A stretch of 43,706 nt of DNA from Pseudomonadota bacterium (lineage in GTDB: Bacteria; Pseudomonadota; Alphaproteobacteria; Rickettsiales; UBA3002), in the NCBI GenBank assembly GCA_048498255.1, contig JBEHYI010000001.1:1-43706 (forward strand), read 5' to 3'. Position 1 is the first letter of the stretch. Every line of letters starts with the position of its first letter. The notes below the pieces were generated by a model. That model searched no databases, had not been told where the DNA came from, and saw only the letters and a list, made by a program, of their open reading frames with translations. The translations under genes and the position numbers were made by a program. This document shows, piece by piece, positions 7,148 through 41,268 of the stretch.

Positions 7148-9514
7148 TTAAGCCTTTTTCGGCTTCGCCGCTTTGCTGATCGGCGTCACCTTGCCGGATT
7201 TTTTCTCCGTTTTTGCGCCTGCAGCGTTGGCTTCCGCCTTCGTTTTCTGCGCAATCGCATCGATACAGCCAATCGCGGCGAGGTTGATAATATCCGCCAG
7301 GCTGGAGTTCATGGTGACGATCTGCACCGGCTTTTCGAGGCCGACCAGCACAGGGCCAACCACGGTGCCGACACCCAACTCCTCCAGCATATTCGCCGAA
7401 ATATGGGCCGAGTGGAGTGCTGGCATGACGAGCACATTCGCCGGGCCGGAGAGGCGGCAGAACGGATACAGCGCCATCAGTTCCGCATTCAGCGCCACAT
7501 CGGCGGACATTTCGCCGTCATACTCGAAATCGATATCCGTGCGGGCGTTGAGGATCTCCACCGCATCGCGAATGCGCTTGGATTTCTCCTTCATCGGGTT
7601 GCCGAAATTGGAGTAGGAGAGCAGCGCCACGCGCGGCTCATGCCCCATTTGCTGCACGATGCGCGCGGTGCGCACAGCAATATCCGCGAGCTCCTTCTCG
7701 TTCGGCAACTCCTGCACGGCGGTATCGGAAATGAACACGGTGCGGTTTTTGCTCACCAGCATTGACATGCCGAACAGGAACTGGCCCGGTTTGGTGTCGA
7801 TCACGCGACAAATATTCTCAAGCGCGCGATAGTAATTGCGGGTGAGGCCCGTCACCACCACATCGCCATGGCCGCAGGCAATCATGCAGCTCGCGAAGAT
7901 GTTACGATCGTTCTTCACCATGCGCTCGACATCGCGCGGCAGGAAGCCTTTGCGCTGCAGCTTGTTGTAGAGATAGTCGATATATTGCGGCAAATGCTTG
8001 GTGACCGCGGCATTCACCACCTCGAGATCGTCCGCGCATTTAATGCCCAGGCGCGAAATGGTTTGGCGAATGCGGTCCGGACGACCGACGAGAATCGGGT
8101 GGCCGTAGCCATTATCGCGCCAATGGATCGCGGCGCGGATGACTTTTTCTTCCTCACCCTCCGCGAAAATCACGCGCTGCGGATTCTGGCGCACGGCGTC
8201 GAAAATATTCGCCATGCTGTTCGCTGCCGGGTCGAGCCGCGCACCGAGCGCACGCTTATAGGCCACGAAATCCGTAATCGGTCGGCGGGCGACGCCCGTA
8301 TCCATCGCCGCTTGCGCAACCGCGAGCGGAATGGTGGTGATGAGGCGCGGGTCAAACGGCGTCGGGATGATATATTCCGGCCCGTATTTCAGCTCGCGGC
8401 CATAGGCGGCCAGCACCTCGTCCGGCACATCCTCGCGCGCCAGTGCGGCGAGCGCTTCGGCGCAGGCAACCTTCATCTCCACGTTGATTTCCTTCGCCCG
8501 CACATCCAACGCGCCGCGGAAGATGTAGGGGAAGCCCATCACGTTGTTCACTTGGTTATGGTAGTCCGAGCGGCCGGTCGCGATGATCGCATCCTTGCGC
8601 ACTTCGAGTACTTCCTCGGGCATGATTTCCGGCACCGGGTTCGCCATCGCGAAAATAATCGGCGCTTTCGCCATCGATTTCACCATGTCTTTCGTCACTG
8701 CACCGGCGGAGGAAAGACCCAGGAACACATCCGCGCCTTCCATCGCTTCCGCTAAAGTGCGGCGCTTGGTGGGCACGGCATGGGCGCTCTTCCACTGGTT
8801 CATGGAGCTATCGTTGCGGCCTTCGTAAATGACGCCGGAACGGTCGCACAGCAGCACGTTTTCGTGGCGCACACCCATATGTTTCAGCAGCTCGATGCAA
8901 GCAATCCCCGCCGAACCCGCACCATTCGCGACGATTTTGAGATCGCGCAACTCGCGCCCCGTGATATGTGCGGCGTTGATAATCCCCGCCGCCGTCACAA
9001 TCGCCGTGCCGTGCTGGTCGTCATGGAACACGGGAATATCGCACAGCTGTTTCAGCTTTTCTTCGATGATGAAGCAATCCGGCGCGCCGATATCCTCGAG
9101 GTTGATGCCGCCAAAGGTCGGCGAAATCGCCCGCACGGTTTCGATGATTTTATCGACATCGTTGCTATCCACTTCGATATCGATCGAGTCAATATCCGCG
9201 AATCGCTTGAAGAGGATCGACTTCCCCTCCATCACCGGCTTCGATGCGAGTGCGCCAAGATTCCCCAAGCCCAACACCGCCGTACCGTTCGAAATCACCG
9301 CAACCAGGTTGCCCTTGCTGGTGTAATCATAGGCCGAGTTTTTATCCTCATGAATCTTGATGCATGGCACCGCCACCCCCGGCGAATAACCAAGCGCGAG
9401 GTCGCGCTGCGTAATCAGCGGCTTCGTCGGTGTGATGGAGATTTTTCCCGGCTGGCCCTGGCTGTGATAGAGCAGGGCTTCTTCGTCGGTAATCTTCATA
9501 TTTTCACTGGCCAT
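7148..9514 (-). CDS. maeB: NADP-dependent malic enzyme (malic enzyme domain plus phosphate-acetyltransferase-like domain) with an extra Lys/Ala-rich C-terminal tail
   Basis: N-terminus EEALLYHSQGQPGKISITPTKP...GYSPGVA...NGTAVLGLGNLGA...KPVMEGK is typical of MaeB. The 788-aa length includes the PTA-like C-terminal half. Confidence 0.93.
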   Translation of the reverse strand: MASENMKITDEEALLYHSQGQPGKISITPTKPLITQRDLALGYSPGVAVPCIKIHEDKNSAYDYTSKGNLVAVISNGTAVLGLGNLGALASKPVMEGKSILFKRFADIDSIDIEVDSNDVDKIIETVRAISPTFGGINLEDIGAPDCFIIEEKLKQLCDIPVFHDDQHGTAIVTAAGIINAAHITGRELRDLKIVANGAGSAGIACIELLKHMGVRHENVLLCDRSGVIYEGRNDSSMNQWKSAHAVPTKRRTLAEAMEGADVFLGLSSAGAVTKDMVKSMAKAPIIFAMANPVPEIMPEEVLEVRKDAIIATGRSDYHNQVNNVMGFPYIFRGALDVRAKEINVEMKVACAEALAALAREDVPDEVLAAYGRELKYGPEYIIPTPFDPRLITTIPLAVAQAAMDTGVARRPITDFVAYKRALGARLDPAANSMANIFDAVRQNPQRVIFAEGEEEKVIRAAIHWRDNGYGHPILVGRPDRIRQTISRLGIKCADDLEVVNAAVTKHLPQYIDYLYNKLQRKGFLPRDVERMVKNDRNIFASCMIACGHGDVVVTGLTRNYYRALENICRVIDTKPGQFLFGMSMLVSKNRTVFISDTAVQELPNEKELADIAVRTARIVQQMGHEPRVALLSYSNFGNPMKEKSKRIRDAVEILNARTDIDFEYDGEMSADVALNAELMALYPFCRLSGPANVLVMPALHSAHISANMLEELGVGTVVGPVLVGLEKPVQIVTMNSSLADIINLAAIGCIDAIAQKTKAEANAAGAKTEKKSGKVTPISKAAKPKKA

Positions 9515-10682: not shown

Positions 10683-13568
10683 ATGGCGCAAACCGCACAA
10701 ACGGCAAATAAAAACGTGATGGCAGAAGCACCCGCAGCTGATTTCTCAGCCGCTGTGCTCACGCCGTCGATGCGGCAATATTTCGAGGTGAAATCCCGCC
10801 ATCCGGAATGTTTGCTGTTCTACCGCATGGGCGATTTTTACGAGCTGTTCTTCGACGACGCGGTGAAAGCCAGCGCCATCCTCGATATCGCGCTGACCAA
10901 GCGCGGCAAAAACGCGGGCGAGGACATCCCCATGTGCGGCGTGCCGGTGCATGCGGCGGAGGCGTATTTGCCCAAACTCATTGCCAGCGGCCTCAAAATC
11001 GCAATTTGCGAACAGCTCGAAACACCGGAAGAGGCGAAGAAGCGCGGCTATAAAGAGGTGGTCCGCCGCGATGTGGTGCGCATTGTGACACCAGGCACGA
11101 TCACGGAAGAAACCCTGCTTACGCCAGGAAATGCGCAGTATTTGGCTTCGTTGGCGATCCAAAATGACAGCGCAGCCGCAGCCTGGCTCGACCTCACCAC
11201 CGGCGAATTCACCGTCGCGCCGCTCAGCTTCACCCAAATCGCCGCGCAACTTTCGCGCCTGCAGCCGAAGGAATTGCTGCTCACGCAAGCGAGTTACGAC
11301 CAGTTGAAAGACCAGCCCTGGTTCCTCGAATGGCGCGAAAGCGTCACCCTCCGCCCGGATGTGCAATTCACCCCCGCAAGCGGCGAAAGGCGAGTGACCG
11401 CGCATTTCAAGGTCAGCACCAGCGACGGTTTCGGCGAATTTAGCGCGCAGGAATTTGCGGCTTGCGGCGCGCTGATTGATTACGTGCAACTCACCCAACT
11501 CGATGCCTCGGCACGGCTCGACGTGCCCAAACGCGAGCAAGCGGGTGAGTTTTTGCAGATGGATGGGGCAACCCGGCGCAACCTCGAACTCATCACCACG
11601 CTCGCCGGTCAGCGCCGCGGCAGCTTGCTCCATTGCATCGATGAAACGGTGACCGCGAGCGGCAGCCGCACGCTGGCACAGTGGCTGGCCGCGCCCTCGC
11701 GCGATTTTGCCGCCATCACCGCGCGGCAGGATGGCGTGGCTTGGGCGCTAACCAATGACCGTTTGCGTGAAGGACTGCGCGCGAATCTCAAGACAATCGC
11801 GGATATGGAGCGCGCCGTCGGCCGCCTCGCGCTTGGCCGCGGTGGCCCGCGCGATTTGCTGCTGCTTGGCGCGAGTTTAATGCAGGCGAATGCGCTGCAC
11901 GAGCAATTGCGCACGCTCGAGATTCCCACCTTGTTGCGGGATGCGCGGGATGCGCTCGCAGGCCATCACCAACTCGCGGAACATCTCAGTTTTGCCCTCA
12001 AAAAAGAAGTCGGCATCTTCGCACGCGATGGTAATTTCATCGCCGATGGCTTCCGCGCCGATCTCGACGAATACCGCCGTCTGCGCGATGAATCGAAGCG
12101 CGTCATCGCCGCGATGGAAACGAAGTTAAAGGACGATACCGGCATTCCGTCGCTCAAAATCAAGCATAATAATGTGCTCGGCTATTTCATCGAAATCACG
12201 CCGATTCACGAGAAAAAAGTGCCGGTGGAATTCATCCATCGCCAGGGCTTGGCGGGTGCGCTGCGCTACAGCACGCCGGAGCTGGCGGAGACCGCGCGCA
12301 AGATCGACGAGGCGGCGGATAAGGCGCTGAAGCTGGAGCTCATGCTGTTCGATGAGCTGCGCGCGAGCGTGCTCGATCGTGGGAAAGAGATTGTGTCAGC
12401 GGCACGTGCACTCGCGATCATCGATTGCATCACCGCGCTTGCCGAACTTGCCCATGGCGGCCAATGGGTGCGCCCAACCATCACCACCGCGCGTGAATTT
12501 CGTGTCACCGCGGGCCGTCACCCGGTGGTGGAAGCGGCACTCCGGCGCGCGCATGAGGAATTCATCGCGAATGATTGTTTTATGGCGGAAGCCGCGCCAC
12601 GGGCCAACTCCCCCCTTGAGGGGGAGTCAAATCCGCCCTTCGCGGATTTGGTGGGGGGTAATTCTTTCGCGAATAATAAGTCTCAAGTACCCCCCCACCA
12701 AAATGCCCAAGCGCATTTTGGCTCCCCCTCAAGGGGGGAGCTGGCCCCAGCCGCAACGCTTGTGCCTCATTCCGGCGTGCCCGGCATGCTCCACCTCATC
12801 ACCGGCCCCAATATGGGCGGTAAATCGACCTTCCTGCGCCAGCAGGCGGTGCTCACCATCCTTGCGCAAATCGGCAGTTTTGTGCCGGCGAAAGCGGCGA
12901 CCATCGGCCTGGTCGATAAGCTCTTCTGCCGCGTCGGCGCAGCGGATGACCTCGCACGCGGGCAATCCACCTTCATGGTCGAGATGGTCGAAACCGCAAG
13001 CATCCTCCATCAAGCCACCAGCCAATCCTTGGTGGTGCTCGATGAAATCGGCCGCGGCACCGCGACCTATGATGGCGTGTCGATCGCCTGGGCCGTTGCC
13101 GAACATCTGCACAACCACACGCGCTGCCGCGCCTTGTTCGCGACCCATTACCACGAACTCACCGCGCTCGCGCAAACCTTGCCGCGCCTGAAGAACTACC
13201 ACGCCACGGCGAAAGAACATCAAGGCAAGCTCATTTTCCTCCACACCATCCGCGAAGGTTTCGCCGATAAATCTTACGGCATCCATGTCGCCGCGCTGGC
13301 GGGCTTGCCGAAATCCGTCCTCACCCGCGCAAAGGAGCTGCTCTCCACCCTCGAATCCGGCCACAGCTTAACGGAACGGGACCAATCCGCTGAACTGCCA
13401 CTCTTTGCAGCGGTTAAAGTAAATACTCTAAGTGAGCAAACAAGCGACAAATCAAAATATTATAAATTGTTGGCTGAACGGATAGAAAATATAGATGTGG
13501 ATGGAATCACCCCGCGCGAAGCCCTTGATTTGTTGGCCGAACTAAAGCACGCCGCCTCGGCCGAATAA
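10683..13568 (+). CDS. mutS: DNA mismatch repair protein MutS, carrying a roughly 55-aa insertion before the Walker A motif
   Basis: [66 protein letters not shown] and FATHYHEL are all present. The start may be the internal Met at codon 13. Confidence 0.95.
12608..12740. repeat. 133-bp structured palindromic element (MITE/RPE-like) embedded in frame in mutS
   Basis: The termini ctccccccttgagggggag (12608-12626) and ctccccctcaaggggggag (12722-12740) are exact reverse complements. Internal hairpins are caaatccgc-ccttc-gcggatttg and ccaaaatgc-ccaagc-gcattttgg. The long-range pair is tggtggggggta / tacccccccacca. Confidence 0.8.
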
Positions 13569-18559: not shown

Positions 18560-20266
18560 TTACGCCGCTTCCGAAATCCGCCGAATGCACTGGTTCAGCG
18601 CATCCACATTGCTTGAGGCTTGCTGCATATTGGTCGAAATTTCCTTCGTCACCGAGCTTTGCTCCTCAATCGCGGAGGCCACCGCATTCACCGAATGGCT
18701 CACCGATTCCGTCGCCGCGTTAACACCGCTCGAGCTCTCCGCGGCTTTCGCTGCCATCGCCTGCAGGTCGGTGATTTTTCCGGCAATGTCATCCGTCGCC
18801 TTGTTTACCTCATTGGCCAGCGTCTTCACCTCGCTCGCCACCACGGCGAAACCCTTGCCGGCATCGCCCGCCCGCGCGGCCTCGATCGTCGCGTTGAGCG
18901 CCAGCAGATTCACCTGACTCGCAATGTTGCGAATCATATCGACCACGCTTTCCATCGATTTCGCGGTGCTTTGCAAATCCGCCGTGATCGCGGTGGATTG
19001 CTGAATTTTGCTCGCAATGTTGCTCACTTCCTGCGTCGAGTTCAGCATGTTGCGGCTAATTTCGCCGATGGATGCGGTCATCTCTTCCGCCGCCGCCGCC
19101 ACCGCCTGGATGGAGCCGTGCAAATCCTCCGTCAGCCCTTGCGAATTTTTGCGCGCGGCCACTTGCGCGGTGATGTCTGACGCATATTTCACCACTTTGA
19201 ACGGCTTGCCGCTCATATCGAAAATCGGGTTGTAGCTGGCTTGAATCCACACTTCTTTGCCGCCTTTGCCAAAACGCTGATACTCACCGGCGGAATATTC
19301 CCCACGGCGGAGTTTTTCCCAGAATTCCTTATATTCCACGCTTGTTGTGAACGCTGAGTCGGCGAACATACTGTGATGCTTGCCTTGAATTTCCGTGAGG
19401 CTATAGCCCATCGCGTTCAGGAAATTTTCGTTGGCAGTGATGATCGTGCCATCCATGTTAAACTCGATCACCGCCTGCGACTTCCCGATGGCGGAAATTT
19501 GGCCGGAATAGTCTGCATTTTTGAGCTTTTGCGCGGTGATGTCACTGGCGTATTTCACTACTTTAAACGGTGTGCCGCTCATATCGAAAATCGGGTTGTA
19601 GCTAGCTTGAATCCACACTTCTTTGCCGCCTTTGCCAAAGCGCTGATACTCGCCCGCAGAATATTCTCCACGGCCAAGCTTCTTCCAAAACTCCTTATAT
19701 TCCGCACTCGCGGCAAAAGCCGGATCCGCAAACATGCTGTGATGCTTGCCTTGAATTTCCGCGAGGCTGTAGCCCATCGCATTCAGGAAATTTTCGTTGG
19801 CGATGATGATCGTGCCATCCATGTTAAACTCGATCACCGCTTGCGACTTCCCGATGGCAGAAATCTGGCCGAGATAATCCGCATTGCGCAGCTTTTCAGC
19901 AGTGATGTCGGTTGCAATTTTTAGCACTTTGTAAGGCTTGCCCGATTTATCGAAGACGGGGTTGTAACTCGCCTCGATCCAGATTTCTTTACCGCCTTTG
20001 CCGTAGCGTTGAAACTGCCCTGCCTCATAAGCGCCGCTGCCGAGCTTCTGCCAGAATTCCTTATATTCCGTGCTTTCGGCGTAAGCGGGGTCGACAAACA
20101 TGCGGTGGTGCTTGCCCTGAATTTCTTTGAGCGTGTAGCCCATCGCGTTCAGAAAATTCTCGTTCGCGCTGATGATGGTGCCATCCAGTTCGAATTGAAT
20201 CGTTGCTTGGGATTTGTTGATCGCATGCAGGTCCGGCTCCGCACTGGCCTTACGTTTTGACAGCAT
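18560..20266 (-). CDS. Soluble methyl-accepting chemotaxis protein with three tandem PAS domains and a short MA signalling domain. No TM or HAMP seen
   Basis: Three copies of [32 protein letters not shown]...YNP(I/V)FD. C-terminal [32 protein letters not shown]. Confidence 0.9.
19163..20260. repeat. Three tandem 366-bp coding repeats (PAS modules). Units 2 and 3 are very similar at DNA level
   Basis: gccgctcatatcgaaaatcgggttgtagct occurs at 19208 and again at 19574 (offset 366). A more diverged copy starts at 19940. Protein period is 122 aa. Confidence 0.85.
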
Positions 20267-20433: not shown

Positions 20434-20510
20434 TGGTCGGAACGACAGGATTTGAACCTGCGACCCCTAGTCCCCCAGACTAGTGCGCTACCGGGCTGCG
20501 CTACGCTCCG
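20434..20510 (-). tRNA. tRNA-Pro (anticodon GGG)
   Basis: Reverse complement CGGAGCG-TA-GCGC-AGCCCGGTA-GCGC-A-CTAGT-CTGGGGG-ACTAG-GGGTC-GCAGG-TTCAAAT-CCTGT-CGTTCCG-A-CCA folds as a cloverleaf, 77 nt with encoded CCA. Confidence 0.9.
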
Positions 20511-30077: not shown

Positions 30078-31364
30078 TTATTTGCTTTCGATCTGCTCGC
30101 CGTGCTGGCTGCCATCGAGGCCGCCTTGCTCTTCCGCATCCGTCACGCGCAGTGGGGTAATCACCGCCACGACTTTGATGATGATGAAGGTGGCAATCAT
30201 GCTGTAAAGCGCGACTGCAATCGCACCGGTCAGCTGAATGTTGAACAATGTTTGGCCGCCATTGAGCATACCATCATTGCCCGCAGCATTCACGGCTTTG
30301 GTCGCGAGCAAGCCCGTCCCCAAAATACCGATCGTACCGCCAATACCGTGGCAGGCGAACACATCGAGCGTATCGTCGATGTTGAATTTGCCCTTCACGG
30401 TGCGCGCAGCAAGGTTACAAATGATACCGGCAGCAACACCGAGAATCATCGCCGAACCGGCCGTCACGAAGCCAGCCGCCGGGGTAATGGCAACCAAACC
30501 CGCCACCACGCCGATGCAGCCGCCAACCGTGGTCGGCTTGCCATCCTTGATGGTGTCGATGAGCGTCCAAGCCAGCATCGCCGTTGCAGCAGCAAAGAAG
30601 CTGTTCACGAACGCTTGCGAAGCCAAACCGCCCGAGGTGAGCGCCGAGCCGCCGTTGAAGCCAAACCAGCCGAACCACAGCAACGCGGTACCGAGCACGA
30701 TCATGCCGACATTATACGGCTTGTGCGCCTGGCCGAAATCGCGGCGTTTGCCAAACAGGATCGCAGCCACGAGCGCGGAGTAACCCGCCGTCATATGCAC
30801 CACGTAACCACCGGCGAAATCGAGCGCGCCTTTTTTGAACAGCCAACCCGTGGACGACCACACCCAGTGGCACACCGGCGAGTAAACCGCGAGGCTCCAC
30901 AGCACGAGGATCAAAATCCAGGCCTTGAAGCGAATGCGCTCAGCGAACGCACCGGTCATCAGCGCCGGGGTGATGATCGCAAACATCATCTGGAACGCCA
31001 TGAATAGGATGTGCGGAATGGTCGCGTTCTTATCGACCGGCTCCTGACCAACGCCATTCAGCATCTGGTAGGCGCTATCGCCGATATAGTCCGACCCGCC
31101 GGAGAAGGCGAGGCTGTAGCCGATGACGGCCCACACCACACCGATAATGCCGAGCGGAATGAAGTTTTGATACAAGGTCGAAACGGCGTTTTTGCTGCGC
31201 ACCATGCCGCCGTAAAAGAAGGCGAGGCCCGGGGTCATCAGCAATACGAGGGCGGTCGAAACGAGCATCCACGCTGTGTCGCCGCTATTCACCGCGGCAA
31301 ACGCCGGGGCGGGCAGTAGAAGGAGCGGTAGCAACCGCGCCAGGGTTTTCGGGGAAAATGACAT
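30078..31364 (-). CDS. amtB: Ammonium transporter AmtB with signal peptide
   Basis: GDTAWMLVSTALVLLMTPGLAFFYGGMVR, DFAGGYVVHMTAG and DVFACHGIGGTIG. No glnK is adjacent. Confidence 0.93.
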   Translation of the reverse strand: MSFSPKTLARLLPLLLLPAPAFAAVNSGDTAWMLVSTALVLLMTPGLAFFYGGMVRSKNAVSTLYQNFIPLGIIGVVWAVIGYSLAFSGGSDYIGDSAYQMLNGVGQEPVDKNATIPHILFMAFQMMFAIITPALMTGAFAERIRFKAWILILVLWSLAVYSPVCHWVWSSTGWLFKKGALDFAGGYVVHMTAGYSALVAAILFGKRRDFGQAHKPYNVGMIVLGTALLWFGWFGFNGGSALTSGGLASQAFVNSFFAAATAMLAWTLIDTIKDGKPTTVGGCIGVVAGLVAITPAAGFVTAGSAMILGVAAGIICNLAARTVKGKFNIDDTLDVFACHGIGGTIGILGTGLLATKAVNAAGNDGMLNGGQTLFNIQLTGAIAVALYSMIATFIIIKVVAVITPLRVTDAEEQGGLDGSQHGEQIESK

Positions 31365-31597
31365 TCAGGCCTCCTGCAAATGGTTTCTCATAAACGCTTA
31401 AGTAACTTCAGCTACTTAGCGCGAAAATACAGGTAAACCGTGTGAATACTCAAAGTGAATGCGAATAATATGGCCAAGCACCTGTTTTTATTGCAGCGCG
31501 ATGTGGTATTTATGCGGCAATCTTCACGGGATTGTCATACTGCGATGCAATGGCAAATGCTATGATGTCCCATCATTAACTAACGGGAACCAAGCTT

Positions 31598-31960
31598 ATG
31601 ACGTTTAGACTTTCGGATGAGTTATATAAAGATTTGTCCACCCTATCCGCTGCTTTTAGTGAAGAACATTGGGGCAGCGAGTATCTTTCTAGACCTATTG
31701 TAAAGTACCTAGGTGATGTCGAGCAATTGAAGCGGCAGGAGTACATTCAACCAGGTCCCTTCTCGCACAGAAATGAATTCGATGTATTGCGCTCGGTCGA
31801 CGGAATTACCGAAGCTTTGACGGCGATTGCGGACCGAAATGAAGAGGAACGGGGTCAAGAGGCGGCAGCGCCTTATCGCTCACTTATTAGCCGTATCGCG
31901 GCCGAAAGAAGGCAAGCGCAGATTGCTAAAAAGGCTACAGAGGGTACTCCGGACCGCTAA
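31598..31960 (+). CDS. Hypothetical protein, 120 aa
   Basis: ATG start, AT-richer segment. It is the first gene of a tight two-gene pair. No family recognised. Confidence 0.5.
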   Translation: MTFRLSDELYKDLSTLSAAFSEEHWGSEYLSRPIVKYLGDVEQLKRQEYIQPGPFSHRNEFDVLRSVDGITEALTAIADRNEEERGQEAAAPYRSLISRIAAERRQAQIAKKATEGTPDR

Positions 31961-31979
31961 AGAATGAAGGAAACTAAAC

Positions 31980-32270
31980 ATGTTTACACCCAAATTAATG
32001 GATGACGTTAAAAAGATGCAAAGCGGCATGCAATTTTGCCCGGAGCGCAATGATTTATGGGATGCGATTCAGAAATATGATGCTGCAGCTGCAGCCTTAA
32101 GCGGAAAATACCCTGCGGCACAAAAAGGCAAACTCAAAAGAGATCTTACAGAATCTGCCGAAACTTTGAAGGAAGCAGTGACAAGCGCAGCTGAATACGC
32201 TGTGGGTACAGACTCTATTCGTGATGCGGTAACGGCTGCTTACAGTAGCGCAATTTCACCTAGGATCTAA
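31980..32270 (+). CDS. Hypothetical protein, 96 aa
   Basis: ATG preceded by aaggaaactaaac (SD AAGGA). Lies 19 nt after the previous stop. No family recognised. Confidence 0.5.
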   Translation: MFTPKLMDDVKKMQSGMQFCPERNDLWDAIQKYDAAAAALSGKYPAAQKGKLKRDLTESAETLKEAVTSAAEYAVGTDSIRDAVTAAYSSAISPRI

Positions 32271-32473: not shown

Positions 32474-33427
32474 TTAGGCGTTATCGTTCGCGGCGTTGAC
32501 CTTATTCGCTTCCGCCAACTTCGCATTCCGTGCGTCGCGCATGCGGGCAAAATCCGCATCCGCATGATACGAACTGCGGGTGAGGGGGCTGGCGGAAACC
32601 ATCAGGAAACCCTTGGTATAGGCCACGCGCTCGAGGTAGCGGAACTCATCCGGCGTGACGTAGCGATCCACCGGCGCATGCGCAGGGGTCGGCTGCAAAT
32701 ACTGGCCAATGGTCATGAAATCCACCTCCGCCGCGCGGAAATCATCCATCACTTGCAGCACCTCATCCATCGTCTCGCCAAGCCCCACCATAATGCCGGA
32801 TTTGGTAAAAACGCTCGGCTGCAGCTCCTTTACGGTCTTCAGCAAATGCAGCGAATTGAAGTAGCGCGCGCCGGGGCGAATGCGCTTATAGAGGCTCGGC
32901 ACGGTCTCGATATTATGGTTAAAAACATCCGGCCGCGCACCGGCGATCACCGGGATCGCATGTTCCTTACGCAGGAAATCTGGCGTTAAAATCTCAATCG
33001 TCGTCTCGGGCGACGTGGTGCGGATATATTCGATACATTGCGCGAAATGCGCTGCGCCGCCATCGTCCAGATCATCGCGATCCACACTCGTAATCACCAC
33101 ATGCTTCAGGCCCAGTTTGCCCACGGCCTCCGCCAAATTCTTCGGCTCCTCGGCATCGAGCTTCATCGGCACACCGGTCTTGATGTTACAAAACGCGCAG
33201 GCCCGCGTGCAGGTGTCGCCCATGATCATCACGGTCGCGTGCGCCTTGCTCCAGCATTCGCCGATATTCGGGCAGGCCGCTTCTTCGCACACCGTGTGCA
33301 GCTTGTTCTTGCGCATCAGCTCGCGCGTATCCTTATAGCCCTGCGATTGCGGCGCCTTAACGCGGATCCAATCGGGCTTGGGGAGTTTTTTGTCGGGGGC
33401 TAACGGGATGGGGTGGAGATCGGCCAT
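32474..33427 (-). CDS. lipA: Lipoyl synthase
   Basis: [25 protein letters not shown] and the radical-SAM motif [10 protein letters not shown]. Start set at ATG 33427 (MADLHPIPL); the track start at 33463 is a TTG. Confidence 0.95.
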
Positions 33428-33464
33428 GGGGGCGGGTTTAGACGAAAAACAAGGATTAGGCAAG
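33290..33464. repeat. Direct repeat copy 1: native lipA 5-prime end plus leader
   Basis: The core 33297-33427 matches 35371-35501 with 6 mismatches in 131 nt by hand alignment. Weaker similarity extends to ttaggcaag at 33456-33464. Confidence 0.85.
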
Positions 33465-33507
33465 CTTCAGCCCATTGGGTGCTTTTTAAGTTTACGCCGC
33501 TTTCGGA

Positions 33508-35205
33508 TTAAACAGCAGACAAACTACGGATCCGGCTAGCAATATCGTTGACCGCGACAGCCATACGCTGGGTATTGCTTGAAATATCCCGCGTGACGGC
33601 GCTTTGCTCTTCCACCGCCCCGGCAACACTGGTGACGTATTCGCTAACCTTTTCAGCCGAATGCGAAATATTTCTGATACTTCCTGCCACGGTAGTGGAA
33701 ATATTTTGTACACCTTCAATTTCCCTAGCGATATCTTCTGTGGCTTTTGTCGTTTGATTGGCTAGGTTTTTCACCTCAGCCGCAACGACGGCAAATCCGC
33801 GTCCCGCATCGCCAGCACGCGCCGCCTCGATCGTTGCATTGAGCGCAAGTAGATTGACTTGGGAAGCGATGTTGTTGATCAAGGTGACGACATTTTCCAT
33901 CGATTTCATACTATGAATCAAACGATCTGCCACTTCGCTGGAAACATGCGTAGTTCTAGTAATGTCTTGTGCCGCATCCTTCGATAAGGACATATTTTTG
34001 CTGATTTCAGTAACGGAGGCTGAAAGCTCTTCCACCGCAGCTGCCACACTTTGGACATTGGAATTCGTTTCATCCGCAATACCGCCCGTTTCAATCACTT
34101 TCGTGACATCCGTGGCAAACTTGACCACTTTAAAAGCCTTCCCATCTGCGTTAAAAATGGGATTATACGATGCTTGAATCCAAACGACCTTCCCGTCTTT
34201 GCCTACCCGTTTGTAAACGCGACTGTCGAATTCACCCCTGCGGAGCTTTTCCCAAAATGCCGAATAAGCTGGACTTTCAGCTTCCGTAGGCTCGACAAAC
34301 ATACGATGATGCCGGCCTTTAATTTCCTCAAGTGTATAACCCATAGTCTGAAGAAAATTGGTATTTGCATGGCGAATGCTGCCATCCATCTCGAATTCAA
34401 TCACTGCCTGCGCTTTACCGATAGCGGCGATTTGCCCGCTCGTATCCGCTGCTTTTAGCTGCTGTTCGGTTACATCCGCTGCATATTTCACAACCTTAAA
34501 GGGTTTGTTGTCCATATCAAAGATGGGATTGTAAGAAGCTTGAATCCACACTTCTTTTCCACCTTTGCCAATGCGTTTATACGTATCGGCAAAATACTCG
34601 CCCTGCCGTAGCCTTTCCCAGAAAGCGGTGTAATCGCGACTTTCTGCATATACTGGATCCACGAACATGCGATGATGCTTGCCTTGTATTTCGCTCAGCT
34701 GATAGCCAAGGGCATGCAAAAAATTATCATTGGCGGTAATAATCGTTCCGTCCAGTTCGAATTCAATGACTGCCTGCGCCCTGCCGATAGCATGAATTTG
34801 ACCCTCATAGTTCGCCGTTTGAAGCTTGGACTGAGTGATATCCGTCGCGTATTTGACCACACGAATAACGCGACCCGCCTGGTCAAGCATAGGGTTATAC
34901 GAAGCCTCAATCCACACGATGCGGCCATTTTTGCCAAAGCGCTTGAATTGGTGCGCCTGGAATTTTCCCTCCCTCAAAAGCGCCCAAAATTGTTGATAAG
35001 AGCTGCTCGCAGCGTCTTTGGGATCGACAAATAAACTATGATGTTTGCCTTGAATTTCTTCGAGCCTGTACCCCATCGCGCCCAGAAAATTTTGATTGGC
35101 GGAAATGATAGTTCCATCCGGCTCAAAATAAATGACGGCCTGGGATCGGCTCACAGCCTCAATTTCCGCCCTATCCATCTCCCTTTTTGCGCGACCCATA
35201 AACAT
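33508..35205 (-). CDS. Soluble triple-PAS methyl-accepting chemotaxis protein, paralog of 18560-20266
   Basis: Same architecture as the other chemoreceptor, with the signalling motif [33 protein letters not shown]. Start set at ATG 35205 (MFMGRAK), which has a GGGAGG SD 4 nt upstream. Confidence 0.88.
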
Positions 35206-35333
35206 AAAACCTCCCGTATAAGTTGCATTCAATAAAAGCAATTTTACTTGGGTTTATTCTATACGTCAACTTCCATAACATTGATGAATATTGAGTCTTA
35301 TTAGTAATTAAAATGAAGATTTTGATTAGAGGA

Positions 35334-35501
35334 TTAATAATGCGTACATCGGTTCGGATACACCACCGCATGCAGCTTGTTCTTGCGCATCAAATCGCGC
35401 GTATCCTTATAGCCATGCGATTGCGGCGCCTTAACGCGGATCCAATCGGGTTTGGGGAGCTTTTTGTCGGGGGCTAACGGGATGGGGAGGAGATCGGCCA
35501 T
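35334..35501 (-). pseudogene. Truncated lipA 5-prime fragment (44 lipA-derived codons, then 11 unrelated codons and TAA)
   Basis: Translates to [44 protein letters not shown], then AVVYPNRCTHY and stop. Homology ends just before the [13 protein letters not shown] cluster motif. Confidence 0.8.
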
Positions 35502-35538
35502 AGCTGTAGATTTAAATGAAGGCGATCAATTAGGCAAG
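35362..35538. repeat. Direct repeat copy 2 of the lipA 5-prime end plus leader
   Basis: See copy 1. It includes the stop region of the 77-aa gene (ttaggcaag, 35530-35538). Confidence 0.85.
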
Positions 35539-35763
35539 TGTTAGCCAATAAAGCGCTTTTCGCAATCTCGTAGCAGCGTTTTGGCTGCCTTCGCGCTCCG
35601 CCAATGTCCCGCCGCTCCATTCATAGGGATTTAATGCGACCTTTAAGCTGGCGATAATATTGGCGTCATCGCCTGCATCAAGAGCGCTGGAGAAGCGAAG
35701 CGCGCTTTCCGAGCCATAAACGTTTTCAATAAACTGAATTACTTTGTTCAAATTACGGTACAT
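35530..35763 (-). CDS. Hypothetical protein, 77 aa
   Basis: ATG start, AT-richer. Its last codons are part of the duplicated block. No family recognised. Confidence 0.45.
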   Translation of the reverse strand: MYRNLNKVIQFIENVYGSESALRFSSALDAGDDANIIASLKVALNPYEWSGGTLAEREGSQNAATRLRKALYWLTLA

Positions 35764-35890
35764 AAAACAAGCAATACACTAATCTTGAATACTGAAGTGT
35801 GAAGGTTTTATGAAATTACGCATAATCCTTGCATTCCACCCCCAAATCCCCTAAAAGCCCCCATCCAAACATAAAACCGCTGGAGAACCC

Positions 35891-36277
35891 ATGGCTCGCG
35901 TCACCGTTGAAGATTGCATCCTCGTCATCCCGAACCGCTTTGATCTCGTGGTCACCGCCGCCGCGCGCGCGAAGCAGATCAGCTCCGGCATGCCGCTAAC
36001 GATCGACCGCGACAACGACAAGGATTCCGTGGTTTCCCTGCGCGAAATCGCCGATAAAACCATCGATCCGTCGCTGGTAAAGGAAGAAGTGATCTCGAAC
36101 TTCATGAAAAAAGTCGGCTTCGACCCGTCGGATGTGATCGAGGAAGACAACCATGCGAGCTACACGCTCGACCACCATGGGGAAATCCAGGAAAACTTCA
36201 TGCACGAGCAGCAATTCACCGAGCAGCAAGCTGCCGGCATGAGCTTTGTCGAAGAGAATATCGAAGTTGAGGACTAG
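35891..36277 (+). CDS. rpoZ: DNA-directed RNA polymerase subunit omega
   Basis: [30 protein letters not shown] is the canonical omega N-terminus. Confidence 0.93.
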
Positions 36278-37113
36278 GCCTCGCGCCCATTAGCGGGCGG
36301 TTTAAATTCCTGACCTATAGCATCGAACAAGCGCGATTGTGCGTTGAGAAAAGCGTTTGCCATCACGGCCGCGGCTTGGCGTTTTTCCTCGCTCAACCCA
36401 GCAAAAGCTCGCAAAGCATCGGCCTCCGCGCGTTGCCCATGTTGAAATTCGATTCCCGCCACATCGAACCCAATGCGGAATGCTCCGTTCGCCTCGATGA
36501 CTTTATTATGCGCGCTGAAATACGGCAGCACGGTTTGGCGGAAGGTGTCATTCCCAATGCGGGCGCGGCTGGCTTCGAACACCGCGAATAAATCCGCCAT
36601 CATGCCCATGCGCGCTTTGCCATCGCCGCCGGAAGCGCGCTCCTGCAGCCAGGAAGCAATGGCTGGAAAATCATGGTAGCCCGCGAGCCACACCTGCTCC
36701 TGGGCATAGGAATCGGGCAGGGAAAGCGCCGCATGCGCCTCTGCAATGGTGATGGCGGGTAGATCGTAAGCCTGGCGTAGCGCGTTAAACGCGGATTCGG
36801 CAAGCTCCTGATGGGTTAGCGAATCGCCCATTTCCTCGGTGAGGTTCTGCATGGCGGTGCGCGCCAGCTCGCAGTCATTTTGCAGCAGCCCCGCTTGCAC
36901 AAGCCCCGCGATGTTGGGGATCGTGCGGTAAATCCGCGCCATCATGGCCCGCGTGAATTGGTCGATCTGTGCGGGCGTAAGGCTGCCGCGCTTGGCCGCA
37001 AGCGCCAATTGCCTGAACATGCCGTGATGGCAGGCCGGGTGGGCCATGACCCGTTGGCTTAAGGCCTGAAATTCGAGCCGGTCGCGCTGGGAAATGGCGG
37101 GTGCTGCTTCCAT
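36274..37113 (-). CDS. Hypothetical protein, possibly heme-oxygenase-like fold / iron-containing redox enzyme family
   Basis: All-helical, 279 aa. EEMGDSLTH has the E-x7-H spacing reminiscent of the first metal motif of CADD/PqqC-like diiron proteins. The later motifs ([19 protein letters not shown]) fit only loosely. Confidence 0.4.
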
Positions 37114-37157
37114 ACGCGTGAGCTATAGCATTGCCATTAATATTTATTAATTATATA

Positions 37158-37180
37158 CTATCAATAATTATTATTGATAG
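37158..37180. promoter_or_regulatory. Perfect 23-bp palindrome in the divergent promoter region; candidate LysR-type binding site
   Basis: ctatcaataat-t-attattgatag is a perfect 11-1-11 inverted repeat ending 6 nt before the LysR ATG at 37186. It contains T-N11-A type dyad symmetry. Confidence 0.55.
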
Positions 37181-37185
37181 AGCCA

Positions 37186-38133
37186 ATGAAAGACCTGAAC
37201 CAGCAATTCCATTACAAAAGCAACCGGCTGCAGCAATTGCGCGGCTTTTGCTATGCGGCACAGTTCGGCAATATCAGCCGCGCGGCGGAGCATATGGGGC
37301 TGACCCATTCGAGCGTCTCGCTGCAAATCAAAGCGCTGGAGGACGACCTCGATGTGCGGCTTTTCACCCGCAACGGCCCGCAAATCGCCCTGACGCGGGA
37401 AGGAGAAATGCTGCTCGATCTCGCGCTGCCGCATGTCGATGGCATCCGCGATATTCATACGCAATTCCACCGCGAGCTGAAGCAAGCGCGCAGCACGGAA
37501 CTGCGCATCGCCGCCAACAGCACCACGCTGAATTTCGTGCTGCCGGAGCTGGTAAAAGCCTATCTCGCGCAGCACCCGGATATTTTTATTACCATCCATT
37601 ATGCCGAGCATGAGGAGGCGATGAAAAAGCTGCAGCGCAAGGAGGTGGATTTCGCCCTGCTGCCGCGGCGCGAGCACAAGCCCTTCCCGAAATATGTCGA
37701 TTATCTGCCGCTTTTTTACTATGCGCCGGCGCTGATTACGCGGCCCGACCACCCGCTTGCCGGCCGCAAAAAACTTACCGTGGCCGAGATCAGTAAATAC
37801 GAGCTGACGCTTCCCGCCGAGGATTTACGTGTGTTGCCGAACCTTTACGATATTTTTCCCAAGCACCAAATCCAGAAAAAACTGCGCGTTAATTTCGTGA
37901 ACTGGGAGACCACCCGCAAATATATCGAAGCGGGGCTCGTTATCAGCATCTCCTCGGATGTCATTATCAGCGCGCAGGATACGCTGATGGCGACACCACT
38001 TTCGCATCTTTTCCCCATGGTGGATTACGGCTTTGTCACCCTCAAAACCCGCGACCTGCCGGGCAAAGTCACCCGCTTTATCGACACGGCGAAGCAACAA
38101 AGCGCCGCCGCCAGGCCAAAAACCCGCAAATAG
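37186..38133 (+). CDS. LysR-family transcriptional regulator
   Basis: LQQLRGFCYAAQFGNISRAAEHMGLTHSSVSLQIKALEDDLDVRLFTR is a LysR HTH. About 315 aa. Divergent from 36274-37113. Confidence 0.9.
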   Translation: MKDLNQQFHYKSNRLQQLRGFCYAAQFGNISRAAEHMGLTHSSVSLQIKALEDDLDVRLFTRNGPQIALTREGEMLLDLALPHVDGIRDIHTQFHRELKQARSTELRIAANSTTLNFVLPELVKAYLAQHPDIFITIHYAEHEEAMKKLQRKEVDFALLPRREHKPFPKYVDYLPLFYYAPALITRPDHPLAGRKKLTVAEISKYELTLPAEDLRVLPNLYDIFPKHQIQKKLRVNFVNWETTRKYIEAGLVISISSDVIISAQDTLMATPLSHLFPMVDYGFVTLKTRDLPGKVTRFIDTAKQQSAAARPKTRK

Positions 38134-40369: not shown

Positions 40370-40551
40370 ACGATCGTAATAAAACTGTCATAATTGAGTG
40401 CTATAAGCAAAAAACATGACCGTTTCTGCGGTTTTTATCCATATCGCACCCCGCTGCATTCCCTTAAGTCCCTATTGTCACACAATCTTCACACTACTGG
40501 TGGAGCGAATGGGTTAGATTGTACTCATAGAATTATTTTATGGAGTGCATC

Positions 40552-41268
40552 ATGAGCGAGGAAACCCAAACGGAAAATAACGGCATTGGCCTTAGTGGGA
40601 TTGTGGGCGGTGGAATAGGGCTAGCTGGCGGTGCGGTCGCCGGGAATCATATTGTCGCAAACCATGCACTTAAACATGTGATTCAGGATAGCGATAAGCA
40701 GCATGCAAAACTTACCCAAGCTACTGAGGAACTAATTACCAATAACCCTGAGCTAGGATATAGTGGAGAAGCTATTCATAATTTCAATGAAGTTGCCGCT
40801 GCCAATGTAAAAGGCTTTCATTTTAGGTCCGACCCAGAGATTAAAGGCTCGTATAATTTGCATTACAACACTCACGATATGGCTGAAGGTGTTGATGTCT
40901 TGAACCAGAAAACCACTATTTTTGGTCTAAAGAATCTGCCGGAAGGGGTCGAAGCCAACCAATGGATTGAAGATCCTTCTATTATTCAAAAAGTATTTAA
41001 AGGTACGGAGCAAGGTGACAAAGCTGCAGCTGCGATTATAAAAAAAGCGGAAAGCAATATCATCAATGATATCCGCAAAGTAGGCGGCAAAGGCTGGGCA
41101 TTTAAAAATATGGGTGTCGTTGGAAAAGGCGCTGTTATCGGCGTAGCACTTGCTGGTACCGCAGCGGGCGCAATGGCGGCAAACGCCATTTTTGGCGGCA
41201 AACATACTGATCAAGTTGCAGCTAATAACAATCGTGAGCAGGAACCCACAATGGGCCGTAGCGCATAA
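40552..41268 (+). CDS. Hypothetical protein with glycine-zipper hydrophobic segments at both ends
   Basis: N-terminal GLSGIVGGGIGLAGGAVAG and C-terminal GAVIGVALAGTAAGAMAANAIFGG. GGAG SD 6 nt upstream of ATG 40552. AT-richer than flanks. Confidence 0.6.
   Translation: MSEETQTENNGIGLSGIVGGGIGLAGGAVAGNHIVANHALKHVIQDSDKQHAKLTQATEELITNNPELGYSGEAIHNFNEVAAANVKGFHFRSDPEIKGSYNLHYNTHDMAEGVDVLNQKTTIFGLKNLPEGVEANQWIEDPSIIQKVFKGTEQGDKAAAAIIKKAESNIINDIRKVGGKGWAFKNMGVVGKGAVIGVALAGTAAGAMAANAIFGGKHTDQVAANNNREQEPTMGRSA

Follow-up and report, generated by a model that had tools for sequence, protein, structure and literature searches.

The 43,706-nt (43.7-kb) stretch of DNA analysed here (the window) is one assembled contig of an uncultured alphaproteobacterium. 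It carries a chemoreceptor gene, MCP2 (33508-35205, reverse strand), inserted at the 5′ end of lipA, the gene for lipoyl synthase, and flanked by two direct copies of that 5′ end. The arrangement is best explained as the gain, specific to this lineage, of a single gene through insertion with duplication, in which lipA was preserved, and we give this reading a probability of about 0.7. Read along the reverse strand, the locus consists of a 77-aa gene (orf77), the distal repeat copy (D) with a dead fragment of lipA, the insert with MCP2, and the proximal repeat copy (P), which runs into the intact lipA.

The direct repeat found by a repeat search measures 197 nt (33290-33486 and 35364-35560, offset 2074) and aligns without gaps at 84% identity. 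It is the sole long direct repeat in the window, besides the internal PAS units of MCP2 and of its paralogue MCP1 (18560-20266). The proximal copy (33290-33486, reverse strand) comprises what is left of the orf77 tail, in decayed form, followed by promoter-like boxes and by lipA codons 1-46, which continue into the intact gene. The distal copy (35364-35560, reverse strand) comprises the last ~10 codons of orf77, a 28-nt spacer with promoter-like boxes and, again, lipA codons 1-46. Counted base by base, the cores of the two copies (33297-33427 and 35371-35501) match at 125 of 131 positions, which is exactly the six differences reported in the initial annotation of this DNA, and the entire coding overlap (33290-33427) matches at 130 of 138. 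The same annotation was right that the lipA 5′ end is duplicated, but the duplicated part covers 46 codons rather than 44. In the 59 nt 5′ of the ATG, 36 positions match in the same register as the coding part; the window background for 59-nt pairs is 14.9 ± 3.5, and 35 or more matches are reached by only 5 of 100,000 random pairs. This upstream part contains the exact 10-mer CTTGCCTAAT in both copies, a sequence that is not enriched within the window. Weaker similarity had earlier been traced as far as ttaggcaag, which corresponds to this 10-mer. The similarity is present in both copies, but ttaggcaag is not its limit: the repeat goes ~22 nt further and so covers the last ~10 codons of the 77-aa gene. 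Beyond the repeat limits, identity is that of the background (12/54 and 12/50).

The intact lipA (32474-33427, reverse strand) encodes a protein with Radical_SAM and LIAS_N domains (Pfam). The radical-SAM core and the N-terminal auxiliary-cluster cysteines are present, and the motif CTRACAFC is visible. The protein is 84-90% identical to LipA of the nearest relatives, with a ranking that agrees with those of SpoT and RpoZ, and the GC content at third codon positions (GC3, 0.742) is usual for this genome. The distal copy lies in a stub open reading frame (ORF; 35334-35501, reverse strand) of 46 lipA codons (MADLL...KLHAV) and nine unrelated codons, followed by a stop. The stub ends one codon before the first Fe-S cysteine, has no Fe-S cysteine and neither LipA cysteine motif, and gives weak matches to lipoyl-synthase models. 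No lipA similarity past codon 46 was found in the AT-rich spacer that follows at the upstream end of the insert (35206-35363, reverse strand; 158 nt). Both the translation and the 30% GC of the spacer bear out the earlier description of the distal copy as a dead lipA fragment that stops just before the Fe-S motif and then runs into AT-rich DNA. For annotation, the short lipA-like ORF is to be treated as a pseudogene fragment.

A chimeric metagenomic contig, in which the lipA 5′ ends of two strains were assembled with unrelated DNA between them, could in principle look like this. The window is a single contig of an uncultured organism and the two copies differ as strain alleles might; no sequencing run was found for the window, and its proteins are singletons in the databases. 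We nevertheless regard an artefact as very unlikely. The longest exact run common to both copies is 35 nt, so they are distinct at the usual assembly word sizes. The stub exits lipA at a point where nothing is shared (GGTG/GTGTATCC), whereas a chimeric join would be expected inside the shared repeat. The leaders differ by 39%, far beyond strain variation, and the layout is coherent, with the MCP2 frame, its promoter and ribosome-binding site, and lipA all intact.

The same locus is found without the receptor in relatives. These were gathered by a lipA-based scan with one genome per species, and 160 lipA loci were compared; a further genome, L174, was found via the LipA 90% cluster (LipA 88% identical to that of the window). 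In L174 the order is rpoZ (-), orf98 (+), lipA (+), a COQ10-like gene and corA. In L168 and L169 (LipA 78% identical) it is rpoZ, orf74, lipA, and a contig from the Joint Genome Institute (JGI) has the same order of rpoZ, orf77 homologue and lipA; none of them has a receptor at this place. In the window, the corresponding genes are rpoZ (35891-36277, forward strand; RNA polymerase omega, Pfam RNA_pol_Rpb6), the divergent neighbour of the lipA locus, and orf77 (35530-35763, reverse strand), which encodes a small protein of 77 aa, predicted to be all helical. The intergenic region between them (35764-35890) aligns in register with L174 and L003, with GGATGGGGGCTTTTAGGGGATTT...TGCAAG in common, and, on this alignment, it is ancestral and orthologous to that of L174. 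The empty site in relatives supports a duplication-insertion scar that preserved lipA.

orf77 gave no Pfam, NCBIfam or PHROG match and, in a word-indexed search, matched only itself. A full HMMER scan recovered P0243 (98 aa, E 1e-8) and P0246 (74 aa, E 2e-4), and all three proteins have the motif L[DN]P[FY]xWxGGTLA[QE]RE in common. The genes of P0243 and P0246 lie between a divergent rpoZ and lipA, 19-41 nt 5′ of lipA, with no receptor. The idea that orf77 is a false gene was rejected in view of these homologues in the same genomic slot. The family is rare and was found in this slot only and in three lineages only (window 35530-35763, L174 2631-2927, L168 4715-4939). An AlphaFold2 single-sequence model of the protein is helical, with a predicted local distance difference test score of 68 and no significant PDB match. 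The HMMER scan also gave a strong multi-stretch match to P0242 (3,678 aa, no Pfam domains, E 2e-18). This match and those to two other very large proteins, P0244 and P0245, were set aside, as they look like unrelated repeat matches.

The initial annotation had expected the 77-aa gene directly before lipA in related genomes. This is true of L174, L168, L169 and the JGI contig, but most close relatives have no 77-aa gene and rpoZ stands beside lipA. The nearest relatives, L001-L004 (Rickettsiales or Alphaproteobacteria metagenome-assembled genomes), have LipA proteins 84-89% identical to that of the window; in L001, L003 and L004 divergent rpoZ and lipA are separated by 100-135 bp that contain no 77-aa gene and no receptor. 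Throughout the clade rpoZ and lipA remain neighbours, and the synteny spoT-rpoZ / lipA-COQ10-like-corA is kept in relatives. A divergent rpoZ lies 5′ of lipA in 12 of the 160 lipA loci, and also in L168 and L170-L174; an MCP gene or a 77-aa gene stands beside lipA in none of the 160. Judged by these gene orders, the content of the rpoZ-lipA slot varies within this clade, and orf77 is a patchy occupant of it. Exact look-ups of orf77, LipA and RpoZ matched no further contig, a 34-base pattern from the repeat core had no exact match in the metagenome contig collection, and a lipA scan of metagenome contigs returned only relatives of 78% identity or less.

Several other features of this neighbourhood were seen. 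L001, L003, L004 and L081, all without the 77-aa gene, have a palindrome element, CTTGC-N5-GCAAG-AAAACTCT, between rpoZ and lipA; the window and L174 retain only TGCAAG at the matching place beside rpoZ. L171 (JGI 3300076529 contig) has a 3,323-bp (3.3-kb) tandem duplication at 2317-8940, 99.7% identical between its halves, which spans part of an M10 peptidase gene, rpoZ, lipA, the COQ10-like gene and a 48-aa ORF. The duplication occurs in L171 and L172 (LipA ~90% identical) and is single copy in L173, the same species from another sample; being polymorphic, it indicates that duplications do arise at the lipA locus. In the window, ~2.5 kb of extra DNA (30078-32270) separates lipA from the COQ10-like gene, which adjoins it in L001 and L170. 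The extra DNA holds amtB (GC3 0.75) and two convergent ORFs of 120 and 96 aa (GC3 0.46 and 0.37) with no family match. Between rpoZ and spoT (36274-38133), which in relatives adjoin or are interrupted differently, the window has a LysR-type regulator and a 279-aa protein without family match. From these gene contents, the whole spoT-rpoZ-lipA-COQ10 stretch behaves as a set of variable slots.

The inserted segment (33487-35363; limits from the register comparison) is 1,877 bp long with 46% GC. MCP2 is its sole gene (Pfam, NCBIfam) and encodes 565 aa with three PAS domains and an MCPsignal domain (PF00015); a spacer of ~80 nt separates it from the intact lipA. The highest Kyte-Doolittle hydropathy over 19 residues is 1.22, so there is no membrane segment and the receptor would be soluble. 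All NCBIfam equivalog models score far below their cut-offs for MCP2, with a weak match to Aer2. The claim that only a second triple-PAS chemoreceptor lies between the repeats, more AT-rich than its paralogue, agrees with the measured GC of 0.479, against 0.536 for MCP1. The difference is larger at third codon positions (GC3 0.486 for MCP2, 0.677 for MCP1), and core genes have GC3 values of 0.63-0.79. MCP2 is thus of atypical composition and is not a recent copy of MCP1. The two proteins are 57% identical overall and 47% identical in the signalling domain; proteins encoded on unrelated contigs share 62-66% identity with the MCP2 signalling domain, against which MCP1 ranks only 106th of 121. 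The insert is probably foreign DNA.

An origin from within the genome, by tandem duplication from lipA to MCP1, 13 kb downstream, followed by a deletion that left MCP2 as an old MCP1 copy, is hardly conceivable. MCP1 does lie downstream of lipA on the same strand, and tandem duplications occur at this locus in a relative. The identity of the two receptors, with more than 100 database proteins nearer to MCP2, and their GC3 (0.49 against 0.68) led us to reject it; moreover, the spacer has no second copy in the window, and the paralogues are much older than the flanking repeats. The nearest homologues of MCP2 share 61-67% identity with it, none more, and no lipA neighbourhood is seen around the best full-length and signalling-domain homologues (L161-L167). 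The homologue closest to the signalling domain (66%; L166 52-1538) is split into two ORFs, one with the PAS part and one with the MCP part. Its contig, which has ars-like genes, also carries an ArsR-type regulator (HTH_20), a DUF6428 protein, a low-molecular-weight phosphatase, a MIP channel, a large serine recombinase and ParB/RepB, a context which suggests that PAS receptors of the MCP2 type travel on plasmid-like elements. MCP1, the comparison paralogue outside the scar (18560-20266, reverse strand), is also a triple-PAS receptor and directly adjoins tRNA-Pro(GGG) (20434-20510). Its PAS units 2 and 3 are 86-96% identical in DNA, which suggests either that one was recently duplicated within the gene or that they evolve in concert.

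Pfam scans of 29 of the larger ORFs of the window found no integrase, recombinase or transposase. The insert ends have no terminal inverted repeats (the best inverted match scores 6, equal to the shuffle mean), the 7-mer ATCCGAA at both ends is within chance, and the end motifs have no further copy in the window. A transposon or insertion sequence with target-site duplication was rejected, as there is no transposase, there are no inverted ends and the duplication is 197 bp rather than 2-14 bp. The insert could also be the remnant of a site-specific island at the lipA 5′ end that later lost its integrase and most of its cargo. The layout is that of islands at dusA, with the remnant of the old 5′ end at the outer boundary and a new 5′ end on the gene (PMC4482086), and the serine recombinase and ParB/RepB beside the closest homologue of the MCP2 signalling domain fit such a source. 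An island remnant is still quite unlikely, given that the scanned ORFs hold no integrase or recombinase, that the insert is only 1.9 kb with one gene and that the repeats, at 138-197 bp, are much longer than a semi-conserved core of ~21 bp; a short core could be concealed within them, but there is no set of related sites to compare it with. No lipA-adjacent islands occur in the 160 relatives, and in the literature collection searched no paper joins lipoyl synthase, integration site and genomic island. A full-text literature search for natural Campbell-type integrations returned nothing relevant.

The identity of the two repeat copies is mosaic. Mismatches make up 23 of the 59 positions 5′ of the ATG (39%) and 6 of 131 downstream (8 of 138 for the whole coding overlap; 6%), with a Fisher p of 7e-9. 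In a two-rate model, the maximum-likelihood change-point falls between 33428 and 33427, the latter being the A of the lipA ATG, with a 2-unit support interval of 33430-33424; the log-likelihood is -70.0, compared with -85.7 for one rate. The Jukes-Cantor distance is 0.55 for the leader and 0.05-0.06 for the coding part. Neutral leaders beside a constrained live coding part would be expected to give a rate ratio below 2, and the observed ratio is about 10. For calibration, 15 orthologous lipA pairs that are at least 92% identical in the first 138 nt are 85-100% identical in the upstream 60 nt. A plain Campbell event would leave uniform divergence along the repeat, which is not what is seen; given the jump in mismatches at the ATG, a single duplication of one age cannot explain the repeat. 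The leaders would have begun to diverge long before the coding part of the stub was made similar to the live gene. The simplest and likeliest account of this pattern is gene conversion, with intact lipA as the template and the stub as the recipient, within the stretch still homologous.

Comparison with relatives as outgroups gives a direction to some of these changes. The proximal and distal leaders match at 22 of 37 positions, which is no closer than the match of the proximal leader to its L174 orthologue (25 of 38). In the coding part, P and D match each other (130 of 138) far better than either matches the L174 sequence (109 of 138 for P and 106 for D). Of the eight coding differences, at least four are derived in the stub and at least one (L5H) in the live gene. 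Taken over all 37 nt, the P and D leaders are about equally like the L174 orthologue; in the 15 nt before the ATG, the ancestral base is kept at four sites in the proximal leader and at two in the distal one. Both leaders have derived states in common (CTTGCCTAAT, with the same spacing) relative to L174 and L003, which argues that they are paralogues made in this lineage and not one native and one foreign sequence.

The main alternative to gene conversion is an import in one step from a related donor in which the receptor already lay directly 5′ of lipA. The donor fragment would have contained the spacer, MCP2, the donor leader and the start of the donor lipA; it would have entered by homologous recombination near the ATG at one end, and at the other end would have been joined after codon 46, illegitimately or via the sister chromatid. 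The proximal leader would then be donor DNA and both coding copies recipient DNA, so that no gene conversion is required and the change of identity exactly at the ATG is explained in one step. The rpoZ-lipA slot does exchange its content among relatives, with a patchy orf77 and other inserts, and interchromatid pairing during transformation can yield duplications by which hits in essential genes are rescued (PMC3784515). We judge such an import unlikely, however. There is no MCP gene beside lipA in the 160 lipA loci, nor lipA near the nearest MCP2 homologues; the derived states common to both leaders make them look like paralogues from within the lineage; the proximal leader is, near the ATG, the closer of the two to the L174 orthologue, which does not fit a foreign origin; and an illegitimate join is needed as well as a crossover within a few bases of the ATG.

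Promoter-like boxes precede the ATG in both copies. They are TTGCCTA (35531-35537) and TTTAAATC (35509-35516) in the distal copy, and TTGCCTA (33457-33463) and TCTAAACC (33435-33442), 7 nt before the ATG, in the proximal copy. An alignment of four lineages (P, D, L174 and L003) shows CTTGCC and TA.A.C to be invariant, at fixed spacing and 6-7 nt before the lipA ATG. We take this pair to resemble the -35/-10 pair of alphaproteobacterial promoters; the lipA mRNA would then be leaderless or nearly so, and before lipA no Shine-Dalgarno sequence can be seen. Both copies keep the boxes despite scrambled bases between them, which suggests that both lipA promoter copies may still be under selection. 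An argument for conserved promoter blocks from the run of 10 identical leader bases was dropped, as the run is not significant alone (P about 0.10), and was moved to the four-lineage alignment. The leaders and the spacer match no Rfam family and have no significant fold.

The spacer ahead of MCP2 carries a sigma-70-like promoter site, TTGACG-17-TAAAAT (35269-35241), and a ribosome-binding site, GGGAGG (35215-35210). The initial annotation placed the receptor behind the original lipA upstream region and lipA behind the duplicated leader; the order is as described, but with these signals of its own the receptor would not depend only on the old region. The spacer promoter is the probable source of MCP2 transcripts, to which the old lipA promoter may add some that run through the stub. 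Transcription of lipA probably starts at the duplicated promoter next to its ATG; read-through from MCP2 is possible, since there is no convincing terminator 3′ of MCP2.

Taken in order, the proposed insertion with duplication would run as follows. The ancestral state was probably a divergent rpoZ, then a gene of the orf77 family, then lipA, with the boxes in the 20-40 nt before the ATG. A 1.9-kb, probably foreign piece, consisting of an AT-rich region with promoter and ribosome-binding site and the receptor gene, would have been joined to lipA after codon 46, and a second ~200-bp copy (orf77 tail, promoter and codons 1-46) would have been placed on the far side of the insert. The product, promoter and dead stub, insert, promoter and intact lipA, would have left lipA functional. 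One reciprocal crossover with a circle that carried a promoter-plus-5′ fragment (Campbell type) would give this topology; the same product would arise if the DNA had entered one of the copies of a transient tandem duplication that was trimmed afterwards. Either way, homologous recombination seems favoured over a dedicated recombinase. Later the leaders would have drifted to 59-61% identity while the -35-like and -10-like boxes were kept, and the coding part of the stub would have stayed, or become, 94-95% identical to the live gene, likeliest by gene conversion from lipA. The initial annotation had proposed Campbell-type integration of a circular DNA or an equivalent duplication-insertion. The duplication-insertion scar, its topology and the empty site stand, but a circular donor is not evidenced and the repeat is not of uniform age, so that a Campbell mechanism is one that the topology would fit.

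Several points weigh against the proposed history. The event is rebuilt from a single contig, without a circular donor, a second strain with or without the insert, or reads. The closest relatives by LipA (L170 and L171-L173, ~90%; L003) do not have orf77, so the ancestral state is taken from more distant genomes. Homologues of MCP2 are only 61-67% identical, so that no donor can be named, and low GC3 is no proof of foreign origin, as the native-looking orf77 also has a GC3 of 0.50. The conversion step is drawn from the identity pattern alone, and that the identity boundary should coincide exactly with the start codon calls for an explanation. The 10-base leader run is not significant, and the promoter calls are consensus matches.

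Two further ideas would give the repeats a role. It is a long shot that the coding repeats (131-138 bp) are the conversion-maintained attachment sites of a recombinase-free "homology cassette". If this were true, a RecA-dependent crossover would excise the receptor as a circle with one lipA 5′ copy and precisely restore lipA, and the circle could re-enter related genomes at lipA; the receptor would be a reversible, transferable single-gene module that uses the promoter of an essential gene. More speculatively still, if the lipA mRNA is leaderless, the identity boundary on the ATG would be the transcription start, and the coding part of the stub might have been re-copied from RNA.

Elsewhere in the window, mutS (10683-13568) contains a nested-palindrome element of ~170 bp (12590-12760), which sits in frame and separates MutS domains III/IV from V. 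Within it are two inverted copies of CTCCCCCCTTGAGGGGGAG and two further hairpins, and it is reminiscent of the palindromic elements that insert into Rickettsia coding genes. Three large consecutive ORFs (386, 854 and 604 aa; 225-5949) have no Pfam match, nor has a 242-aa ORF with a very low GC3 of 0.395 (40540-41268).

The locus would be a natural case in which a gene was gained inside an essential housekeeping gene and the latter was kept, apparently without a dedicated recombinase. It suggests that single sensory genes can be acquired via homology with the 5′ end of the target itself. The promoter would be duplicated in the process, one copy serving lipA and the other free to drive the newcomer. 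It may also be a case of concerted evolution, as a dead stub of 46 codons is 94% identical to the live gene and the adjoining non-coding bases have diverged by 39%.

Aer2/AerC-like receptors are soluble PAS-domain chemoreceptors for energy or redox taxis. MCP2 would resemble them in being cytoplasmic, with N-terminal PAS sensors and a C-terminal MCP signalling domain, but it has three tandem PAS_3-type domains and is known here from its sequence alone. As to the insertion, the likeness to Campbell-type integration is close: the insert lies between two direct copies of one contiguous target segment, of which the upstream one breaks off at the would-be fragment end and the downstream one, with its own promoter, runs into the intact gene. 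The gene stays functional, and the event is in principle reversible by recombination between the repeats. That integration is engineered, whereas the present one is natural and comes without a vector, replicon, marker or observed circular donor; the repeats here are also mosaic (94% and 61%) rather than uniform, and at least one further step is needed.

The element SXT integrates at prfC with the same kind of 5′-end replacement. Like such islands and those at dusA, the lipA insert lies in a conserved gene, within its 5′ part, and is flanked by imperfect direct repeats; the far boundary keeps a remnant, and the gene has a second 5′ end. Islands specific to dusA integrate into that gene's 5′ end, leave the original 5′ end as a remnant and supply a new one (PMC4482086). 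The dusA and prfC islands are 10-100 kb long, with a tyrosine integrase by the junction and a short attachment core (21 bp at dusA), whereas the lipA insert has 1.9 kb, one cargo gene, no recombinase and repeats of 138-197 bp. A cassette that lands in an essential gene during natural transformation can give rise to merodiploids (Johnston et al. 2013, PMC3784515). Their duplications span 100-900 kb, are bounded by repeats derived from insertion sequences and are unstable, and sister-chromatid recombination is the proposed route (PMC3784515). Here, too, a hit in an essential gene is tolerated and the intact copy comes from a duplication; in contrast to the merodiploids, only ~200 bp are duplicated, and the duplication has lasted until the leaders diverged by 39%. 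Set beside these systems, the lipA insertion is a clear but ordinary gene-gain scar and not a new kind of system.

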